From: Candidatus Nomurabacteria bacterium
GTDB lineage: Bacteria > Patescibacteriota > Saccharimonadia > Saccharimonadales > HK-STAS-PATE-42
Direction of reading: 5' to 3'
DNA: 64,000 bases
Assembly (NCBI GenBank): GCA_023898665.1
Contig: CP060233.1
Span: forward strand, 548,368 to 612,367
In this document: positions 22,359 through 23,120 of the stretch, piece after piece
Position numbering within the stretch: position 1 is the stretch's first letter
How the letters are laid out: every line of letters begins with the position of its first letter
Notes under the pieces: model-generated
Told to the model about the DNA's origin: nothing
Databases searched by the model: none
Seen by the model: only the letters and a program-made list of their open reading frames with translations
Translations under genes and position numbers: made by a program

Positions 22359-23120
22359 TTAAGGTCTTAGGGTTCCAGCAAAAACCTGCCAAGCTAGTAA
22401 TGATTTTGCCACTAAGCTTAAGATAATATAAGCTCGCTCACCATATAAATAGTTTTTCCATGGCCCTATTTTTTTATACTGAAGAACCATATTGACCGCA
22501 AAACAGTTAAAGAAGAGGAAGATCGAAACGAAGATCCAATAAACAAAAGCTGGGGCTTTGCTTCCATCTGATGCGCCAAGAGCCAAGTAGAGGGCGATTA
22601 CCACCCAAGGAATTGCTCCGGCTATACAGCCGACATAATAACTAAGCCAATTTGTTTTTTGTGTAGTCTGGTTATGGACTTCCATAACTAATCCACATAA
22701 GTTCATAACAGCAGTTAAGCCAAAGAGCATAATTAGGCTACCGAGGTCGTAGATTCCTACAAGTAAACTTATTGCGACGATCATAATACTCGCAGAAAAA
22801 GAGTATTCTATCCATCTAACCTTATTTATCCCTTTGTTTAAATCATGTTGGTATTTATCCTTATAAACAGTAGCTATAAAAAGATGCGCTAGTGATGATA
22901 AAACAAAAAATGAAAAAATTAGAGCAGGGAGAGATAAGTTAAATAATACTTTGCTTGCAGGATCTAGATTTTGGGTACTTTCGTTAAACTTTAAGAAACT
23001 TCCACTAATCGGTAGAGAAAAACTTTTACTTAATACTAAGATCAAACCAGCCTGCACAGCATGCAGTAATGACATAATTGCATTAAATCTGACTAATCTT
23101 TGGGTGGTGACTTTTTTCAT
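22359..23120 (-). CDS. Heliorhodopsin
   Basis: 253 aa with 7 TM segments. RWIEYSFSASIMIV carries the counterion-type Glu (E105). Other matching blocks are YYVGCIAGAIPWVV, FVYWIFVSIFLFFNCFAVNMVLQYKK and YGERAYIILSLVAKSLLAWQVFAGTL. The last block holds the putative Schiff-base Lys K239 (codon 22404-22406). The blocks are co-linear with heliorhodopsin 48C12 as I remember it (E107/K241). Confidence 0.75.
   Translation of the reverse strand: MKKVTTQRLVRFNAIMSLLHAVQAGLILVLSKSFSLPISGSFLKFNESTQNLDPASKVLFNLSLPALIFSFFVLSSLAHLFIATVYKDKYQHDLNKGINKVRWIEYSFSASIMIVAISLLVGIYDLGSLIMLFGLTAVMNLCGLVMEVHNQTTQKTNWLSYYVGCIAGAIPWVVIALYLALGASDGSKAPAFVYWIFVSIFLFFNCFAVNMVLQYKKIGPWKNYLYGERAYIILSLVAKSLLAWQVFAGTLRP

Follow-up and report, generated by a model that had tools for sequence, protein, structure and literature searches.

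A TaHeR-like heliorhodopsin gene in a Saccharimonadia genome, a likely non-transporting light sensor supplied with exogenous retinal

The locus and the identity of its gene

We analysed a heliorhodopsin gene carried by a 64,000-nucleotide stretch of contig CP060233.1, which was deposited under the name Candidatus Nomurabacteria bacterium; the whole of this stretch is referred to below as the window. Heliorhodopsins (HeRs) form a family of light-sensing, retinal-binding membrane proteins, for the prokaryotic members of which a sensory or regulatory role has been discussed (PMC9529153, PMC9769723, PMC11109279, PMC8612252). The gene lies at positions 22359-23120 on the minus strand, starts with ATG and encodes an intact, full-length protein of 253 amino acids (aa), which we call HeR. 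A first-pass annotation, made from the DNA letters and their translations, had proposed a heliorhodopsin here on the basis of four blocks, RWIEYSFSASIMIV, YYVGCIAGAIPWV, FVYWIFVSIFLFFN and GERAYIILSLVAKSLLAWQVF, all of which are found in the translation of this open reading frame (ORF), and had singled out residues 105 and 239, which are indeed Glu and Lys in HeR.

Profile searches upheld this proposal, with significant full-length matches to both the Pfam Heliorhodopsin family PF18761 (E=7.9e-99; 330.3 bits against a cut-off of 26.7; model positions 1-242 of 242) and, with 333.6 bits where the cut-off is 100 (E=6.9e-100), the NCBIfam equivalog NF038020 ‘heliorhodopsin HeR’. TaHeR (6IS6; E=8.5e-85) ranked first among solved structures, and 48C12 (E~2e-53) came next. 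Neither the GC content of the gene (0.362) nor its GC at third codon positions (GC3, 0.323) sets it apart from the rest of the genome, so that the gene is native, and a recent horizontal transfer can be ruled out on the same grounds. Together with the AlphaFold and Foldseek analyses presented below, these data identify 22359-23120 as a genuine native heliorhodopsin gene of the TaHeR-like type with seven transmembrane helices (TMs).

Key residues and their conservation

We then mapped functional residues using pairwise alignments and a MAFFT alignment in which TaHeR was added to 81 Saccharibacteria-type HeRs. When HeR was compared with 48C12 and TaHeR in this way, the Glu and the TM7 Lys fell at the positions named in the first-pass annotation. 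The proposed counterion, E105, aligns with the known counterions TaHeR E108 and 48C12 E107 and is unchanged in 81 of 81 sequences; its codon (22806-22808) belongs to the TM3 motif RWIE (22806-22817, minus strand), which continues as RWIEYS in HeR and reads RWxEYS in the family. The Schiff-base Lys, K239 (codon 22404-22406), corresponds to TaHeR K238 and 48C12 K241 and sits in the SxxxK motif of TM7, here SLVAK (22404-22418, minus strand), which is the commonest TM7 motif among HeRs of the candidate phyla radiation (CPR; PMC9166423). Its partner in this motif, S235, is equivalent to TaHeR S234, and both S235 and K239 are unchanged across all 81 sequences. Furthermore, HeR retains the His pair H20 and H79 (H23 and H82 in TaHeR; H23 and H80 in 48C12) as well as Q214 and E228 (Q213 and E227 in TaHeR). 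The residues found to be invariant in 81 of 81 sequences were H20, Q23, H79, E105, S109, Q214, E228, S235 and K239, and the polar residues present on the cytoplasmic side of HeR are Q23, S75, S109, Q214 and E228.

The analysis also revealed how widely this protein is maintained. Intact relatives of HeR were found in species-representative genomes at least 527 times, the best 80 of these sharing 63-74% identity with it, and 79 of its 253 positions are conserved at 98% or more in the 81-sequence alignment; HeR is therefore under strong purifying selection. Conservation is highest in TM6 and TM7 (majority fractions of 0.91 and 0.95, respectively), and segments on the cytoplasmic side are slightly more conserved than those on the extracellular side (0.78 versus 0.72), a distribution that fits, though weakly, an interaction surface inside the cell.

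Predicted structure and topology

An AlphaFold2 model of HeR, built from an input alignment of 53 homologues, contains seven helices and a hairpin in extracellular loop 1 (ECL1), between TM1 and TM2, with a mean predicted local distance difference test score (pLDDT) of 87.2 and a predicted template-modelling score (pTM) of 0.82. The loop comprises residues 31-63 (22932-23030, minus strand), and DSSP assigns two beta-strands to it in the model, at residues 35-46 and 51-63. When this model was compared with known structures using Foldseek, it superposed on TaHeR 6is6 with a template-modelling score (TM-score) of 0.92 and a root-mean-square deviation of 1.7 A, and on 48C12 with a TM-score of 0.88. 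All of the ten top matches were HeR structures (TM-scores of 0.86-0.92), and structures of type-1 rhodopsins reached about 0.5-0.66 at 10-17% identity. The fold predicted for HeR is thus that of a seven-TM rhodopsin, its ECL1 forming a long beta-hairpin. In addition, we counted 13 Lys and Arg residues on the side that is cytoplasmic by homology and five outside, a charge distribution that agrees with the inverted topology of the family, in which the N-terminus would be cytoplasmic and the C-terminus outside.

Residues bearing on ion transport and retinal uptake

Some HeRs transport protons, and the residues responsible allow the two types to be compared. Proton transport by the viral protein V2HeR3 depends on E191, together with W195 and E205, and the equivalent positions in TaHeR, which has a hydrophobic extracellular half and for which no transport was detected, are I199, F203 and Q213 (PMC9448325). 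HeR carries I200, F204 and Q214 at these positions, so that in the alignment both the Glu (191) and the Trp (195) that are hallmarks of TM6 in V2HeR3 are missing. This arrangement extends to its relatives: F204 and Q214 are invariant in the 81 sequences, of which 97.5% have Ile at position 200. Since these three residues are shared with TaHeR, HeR is, as judged by its hallmark residues, of the non-transporting TaHeR type. HeR gave no match to the type-1 family Bac_rhodopsin (PF01036) at E<=0.1, and its TM7 motif is SxxxK rather than the type-1 DxxxK.

The TM5-TM6 stretch (residues 161-209; 22494-22640, minus strand), to which I200 and F204 belong, also contains the residues that line a lateral fenestration, as they are listed in a preprint (10.1101/2025.11.27.691015). 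In HeR these are Y161, C165, G168, F204, N205 and A208, identical to TaHeR Y164, C168, G171, F203, N204 and A207, and G168 and F204 are invariant across the 81 sequences. With its opposing aromatic pair, small residues and Gly, a putative TM5/TM6 fenestration for the uptake of exogenous retinal is thus conserved in HeR. TaHeR itself, whose source organism lacks a retinal pathway, has been reported to load exogenous retinal fast via an opening in the apoprotein (PMC9296517).

The host and its retinal supply

To whom the gene belongs can be judged from its relatives and from a second protein of the window. Among the best 80 relatives of HeR, 62 are labelled Saccharibacteria, Saccharimonadales, Saccharimonas or Microsaccharimonas, and most of the others bear uninformative labels. 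The nearest named relatives of elongation factor G (EF-G) from the window are likewise Saccharibacteria, Saccharimonadales and Ca. Saccharimonas aalborgensis, at ~75% identity, and a block consisting of Obg, a 164-aa protein and an aminoacyl-tRNA synthetase is common to the window and to one of the other HeR loci (L079), which belongs to a metagenome-assembled genome (MAG) of Patescibacteria. These relatives place the host in Saccharimonadia (TM7, Patescibacteria), a reduced episymbiotic lineage, as the first-pass annotation had surmised in speaking of a reduced epibiont. Because HeR and EF-G both have their nearest named relatives among Saccharibacteria or Saccharimonadales, the deposited NCBI label ‘Candidatus Nomurabacteria’ is probably wrong.

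We also searched the window for genes of retinal synthesis. A Pfam scan of 57 window ORFs, which included every non-nested ORF of at least 170 aa and left six short ORFs (91-169 aa) outside it, identified no BCD/blh, phytoene synthase, phytoene desaturase or lycopene cyclase, and the earlier remark that the window holds no crt or blh gene is borne out to this extent. Rhodopsin-bearing Saccharibacteria have been described as lacking blh, and their retinal has been proposed to come from actinobacterial hosts (Jaffe et al. 2022, PMC9296517).

The gene neighbourhood

HeR is flanked by a gene for an 88-aa OmdA/YdeI protein (22087-22353, plus strand), which is convergent with it across a 5-bp gap, and by a PD40 propeller gene (23289-24686, plus strand), which is divergent from it across 168 bp. 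Since one neighbour is convergent and the other divergent, HeR is monocistronic and has no same-strand operon partner. The 168-bp intergenic region (23121-23288) is AT-rich and, from the gene layout, presumably contains the HeR promoter; a consensus scan recovered no sigma-70-like site on its minus strand, and scanning for promoters and terminators around HeR yielded nothing above the shuffled background. A second PD40 propeller gene lies at 19618-21087 (minus strand) and a third surface protein, with a choice-of-anchor Q domain, is encoded at 25352-26929 (plus strand). Both PD40 proteins and the latter product have signal peptides, and in all three an IPKTG, PPKTG or ARTG motif near the C-terminus (PKTG in both PD40 proteins) precedes a hydrophobic segment and a basic tail; these C-termini look like sortase-type signals, seemingly variants of the canonical LPXTG.

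We then examined the synteny of this arrangement by comparing 30 window proteins with 80 other Saccharibacteria HeR loci, with flanks of up to 10 kb, using tblastn, and by clustering all ORFs within four genes on either side of HeR in the 81 loci. The arrangement of HeR and its neighbours recurs on three independently assembled contigs (NCBI, ENA and JGI) of the same strain or species. Across the flanks of the 80 other loci, however, the PD40 proteins found 0-1 matches and OmdA four, only one of which (in locus L007) is adjacent to HeR, and we therefore rejected OmdA/YdeI as a partner. Thus, the wall-anchored propellers and the YdeI-like neighbour named in the first-pass annotation, which had placed HeR in a surface-protein cluster, are present at this locus, but their association with HeR is not conserved in the 80 other loci. 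As the neighbours are not conserved and HeR is monocistronic, the genomic context is uninformative on its function, and the surface-protein setting is incidental.

The largest cluster of HeR neighbours, present in nine of the 81 loci, is a convergent ClpB-like AAA+ gene, followed in eight of them by genes for a small membrane protein, a Mur-ligase-like protein and a glutamine-amidotransferase-like protein, the last two of which are probably MurT/GatD. This synteny is confined to one subclade, and the cluster was set aside as a functional link to HeR. In five HeR loci, the next gene upstream, in the same orientation, is an NAD(P)-binding NmrA/short-chain dehydrogenase/reductase (SDR)-like gene, an arrangement reminiscent of the ‘SDR’ group of neighbours in PMC11109279. 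Of the genes known as partners of HeRs elsewhere, which are those for glutamine synthetase, photolyase, ABC transporters and two-component systems (PMC9529153, PMC9769723, PMC11109279, PMC8612252), none flanks HeR; a UvrC gene lies 11 kb away.

Finally, a second HeR was matched in none of the 81 loci, including the 20.8-kb stretch of the window at 12359-33120, and no other scanned ORF of the window matched a Pfam rhodopsin family. Two of these loci, L038 (136570-157325) and L078 (82872-103621), lie on the same contig of a Saccharimonadales MAG (DASTXH010000031.1), which thus carries two HeR genes ~54 kb apart, so that HeR paralogues exist in some members of the lineage.

A model for HeR function and its alternatives

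We consider it likely that HeR is a slow-cycling, non-transporting light sensor or regulator that is loaded with retinal derived from a host or from the environment. By analogy with characterised homologues, all-trans retinal would bind covalently to K239, and light would isomerise it to the 13-cis form, setting off a slow photocycle lasting seconds. No ions would be moved; rather, a conformational change at the conserved TM6/TM7 and at the cytoplasmic face would modulate a partner protein, so that HeR would act as a light sensor or as a regulatory ‘helper’ rhodopsin. The literature on rhodopsin-bearing Saccharibacteria and the lack of crt and blh among the scanned window ORFs suggest that the cell would be unable to make retinal, in which case the apoprotein may be loaded with scavenged retinal through the lateral TM5/TM6 fenestration, as reported for TaHeR. 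The partner would not be encoded adjacent to the gene, and, since the 81 loci have no conserved partner, it should be sought elsewhere in the genome and not in an operon.

Several points weigh against this model. The absence of crt and blh genes covers 64 kb of a genome of ~0.69 Mb, and their genome-wide absence rests on the literature. We found no published experiments on Saccharibacteria HeRs, and retinal binding, absorption and photocycle are extrapolated from homologues at 40-56% identity. There is no evident partner gene, as no neighbour family occurs in more than nine of the 81 HeR loci. Moreover, some related HeR-bearing MAGs are named after dark habitats, a sulfidic cave (SulCav) and groundwater (HGW), which is awkward for a light-dependent role if these habitats are truly dark, MAG names being weak evidence of how much light a habitat receives. 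Other HeR-bearing Saccharibacteria MAGs have names that refer to activated sludge or enhanced biological phosphorus removal (EBPR) reactors and to soil.

The fenestration could also serve another pigment. According to this proposal, it would mainly dock an exogenous xanthophyll that funnels energy to the retinal, so that HeR would be a two-antenna light harvester whose outward topology, in a monoderm, captures carotenoid. Each of the carotenoid-site positions named in the preprint cited above is permissive in HeR (the Y161/F204 pair, C165, A208, G168 and N205); the carotenoid claim that the preprint makes for HeRs is built on docking and sequence motifs, and the sections consulted report no spectroscopy of energy transfer in a HeR. 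The proposal is also silent on what the absorbed light is used for, and would complement the sensor model instead of replacing it; as the main role of the fenestration, we regard it as unlikely. It is very unlikely that HeR is a mostly empty opsin, or that it serves a light-independent role (binding of retinoids or carotenoids, or a structural role in the membrane) in an organism that would be unable to make retinal and may live in dim or dark habitats. In favour of this reading, the scanned window ORFs include no gene of a retinal pathway and some relatives come from MAGs whose names refer to caves, groundwater and sludge, but such names say little about light. K239 and E105, like the retinal pocket as a whole, do not vary among 81 sequences drawn from different species, a constancy that would be difficult to account for unless chromophore binding and photochemistry were selected for.

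An action of HeR on its local neighbours, for example as a light-dependent regulator of the PD40 propellers or of YdeI/OmdA within a surface cluster, could draw on the divergent 168-bp region shared with a PD40 gene and on the recurrence of this layout on the three contigs of one strain or species. The layout is not kept beyond the strain, however, given the handful of PD40 and OmdA matches among the 80 loci, and the convergent OmdA gene is not co-transcribed with HeR; this idea is largely refuted by the synteny analysis and is highly improbable. Precedents likewise exist for a light-driven or light-gated proton transporter resembling V2HeR3, which would supply a fermentative epibiont with proton-motive force, as some HeRs move protons (PMC9448325) and type-1 rhodopsins provide energy to some Saccharibacteria (PMC9296517). 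Yet the replacement of E191, W195 and E205 by I200, F204 and Q214 reproduces the TaHeR configuration; we rejected ion transport on these hallmark residues and would assign it a very small probability.

The sensor model can be extended to the relationship between epibiont and host. As outward-facing, fenestrated opsins of an epibiont, Saccharibacteria HeRs might report, in addition to light, attachment to a pigmented host. They would become photoactive only with retinal, or a xanthophyll antenna, obtained from a carotenoid producer (e.g. an actinobacterium), and TM6/TM7 and the cytoplasmic face would then pass the signal to a conserved partner whose gene lies elsewhere in the genome. The occurrence of HeR in at least 527 species-level genomes, the lack of a linked partner and the lack of a retinal gene among the scanned ORFs of the window are compatible with this extension, and none of them is a test of it; we think it quite unlikely. 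More generally, HeR illustrates clearly the case of an opsin whose genome very probably does not allow its chromophore to be made. As the residues predict a TaHeR-like, non-transporting, exogenously loaded pigment, HeR or a close relative would be a reasonable candidate for expression.

Comparison with known rhodopsins

The closest characterised relative of HeR is TaHeR from Thermoplasmatales archaeon SG8-52-1 (6IS6, 7U55, 7CLJ), with 56% full-length identity. The two proteins are alike in their counterion, Schiff-base Lys, His pair, Q214/E228 network, fenestration and hydrophobic I200/F204. They differ in that the TM5-TM6 loop of HeR (GASDGSKAP) is four residues longer and, among the aligned positions tabulated, in the substitutions S76 for A79, C142 for M145, F201 for A200 and V212 for Y211, and the host of HeR is bacterial (Saccharimonadia) whereas that of TaHeR is archaeal. 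TaHeR shares 50-60% identity with all of the 81 Saccharibacteria-type HeRs, and bacterial 48C12 only ~40%. The closeness of TaHeR raises the question of a transfer between domains, or of the binning of the TaHeR contig. The founding actinobacterial HeR, 48C12 (6SU3, 6UH3), belongs to a more distant subfamily, with 40% identity to HeR and other loop lengths.

Within its own lineage, HeR is not new. The identical 253-aa protein is annotated in NCBI nr as ‘MAG: heliorhodopsin HeR [Candidatus Nomurabacteria bacterium]’ (HRV75809.1, USN97343.1), and both Saccharimonadia HeRs and retinal scavenging have been published, so that the finding is already known at the level of the sequence and of the lineage. 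A set of 80 HeRs from Saccharimonadia was described by Chiriac et al. 2022, who suggested a role in sensing or in oxidative stress (PMC9166423). Bulzu et al. 2021, who found HeRs exclusively in monoderms, named Patescibacteria as one of the phyla and favoured sensing as the function (PMC8612252). The Saccharimonadia and CPR proteins of Chiriac et al. belong to the same lineage and family and share the SLVAK motif, and HeR is 63-81% identical to hundreds of sequences of this kind; we see no substantive difference from that set, of which HeR is one further member.

Some HeRs are coupled to a partner within an operon, namely AbHeR with glutamine synthetase, TfHeR with photolyase and OcHeR with the ABC transporter OmrDE (PMC9529153, PMC9769723, PMC11109279). 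HeR shares with them its family and a presumed light-dependent modulation of a partner protein, but, unlike them, stands without a same-strand partner gene. SacR, the type-1 DTS proton pumps of Saccharibacteria (PMC9296517), occur in the same host lineage; both they and HeR would need a retinal that the cell probably cannot make, and a similar opening for retinal access has been proposed for both. They nevertheless belong to different rhodopsin families, HeR being distinguished from SacR by SxxxK in place of DxxxK, the opposite predicted topology, non-pumping residues and a TM-score of ~0.6.

Other features of the window

Several further observations concern the rest of the window. An AcrB/RND (resistance-nodulation-division) transporter of 905 aa is encoded at 13553-16270 on the minus strand (ACR_tran, 321 bits), in what is presumed to be a monoderm CPR bacterium, and no outer-membrane or periplasmic adaptor partner for it was identified among the scanned neighbouring ORFs. 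A number of housekeeping genes appear in fragments: hisS is split into three ORFs (38038-38640, 38655-38939 and 38900-39205), a 130-aa fragment of TsaD lies at 37096-37488, the ORF at 39595-40068 contains only the N-terminal domain of an LD-carboxypeptidase and is followed by an ORF-free gap, and PheS (58107-58772) covers profile positions 52-246 only. The fragmentation in 37096-40068 and 58107-58772 reflects either long-read frameshift errors or real pseudogenes. Finally, the G+C content of positions 1-6000 is higher than elsewhere in the window (0.445 versus 0.372; GC3 of 0.41-0.46 versus 0.25-0.33). The genes at 489-1088, 1885-2286, 2335-3606 and 3699-5075 lie in this segment, and its products include a large serine recombinase (Resolvase, Recombinase and Zn-ribbon domains), an aldehyde dehydrogenase and DUF4352 and DUF4357 proteins. 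With a tRNA-Gln(ttg) gene at its end (5309-5383), the segment looks like a mobile element integrated at a tRNA gene.

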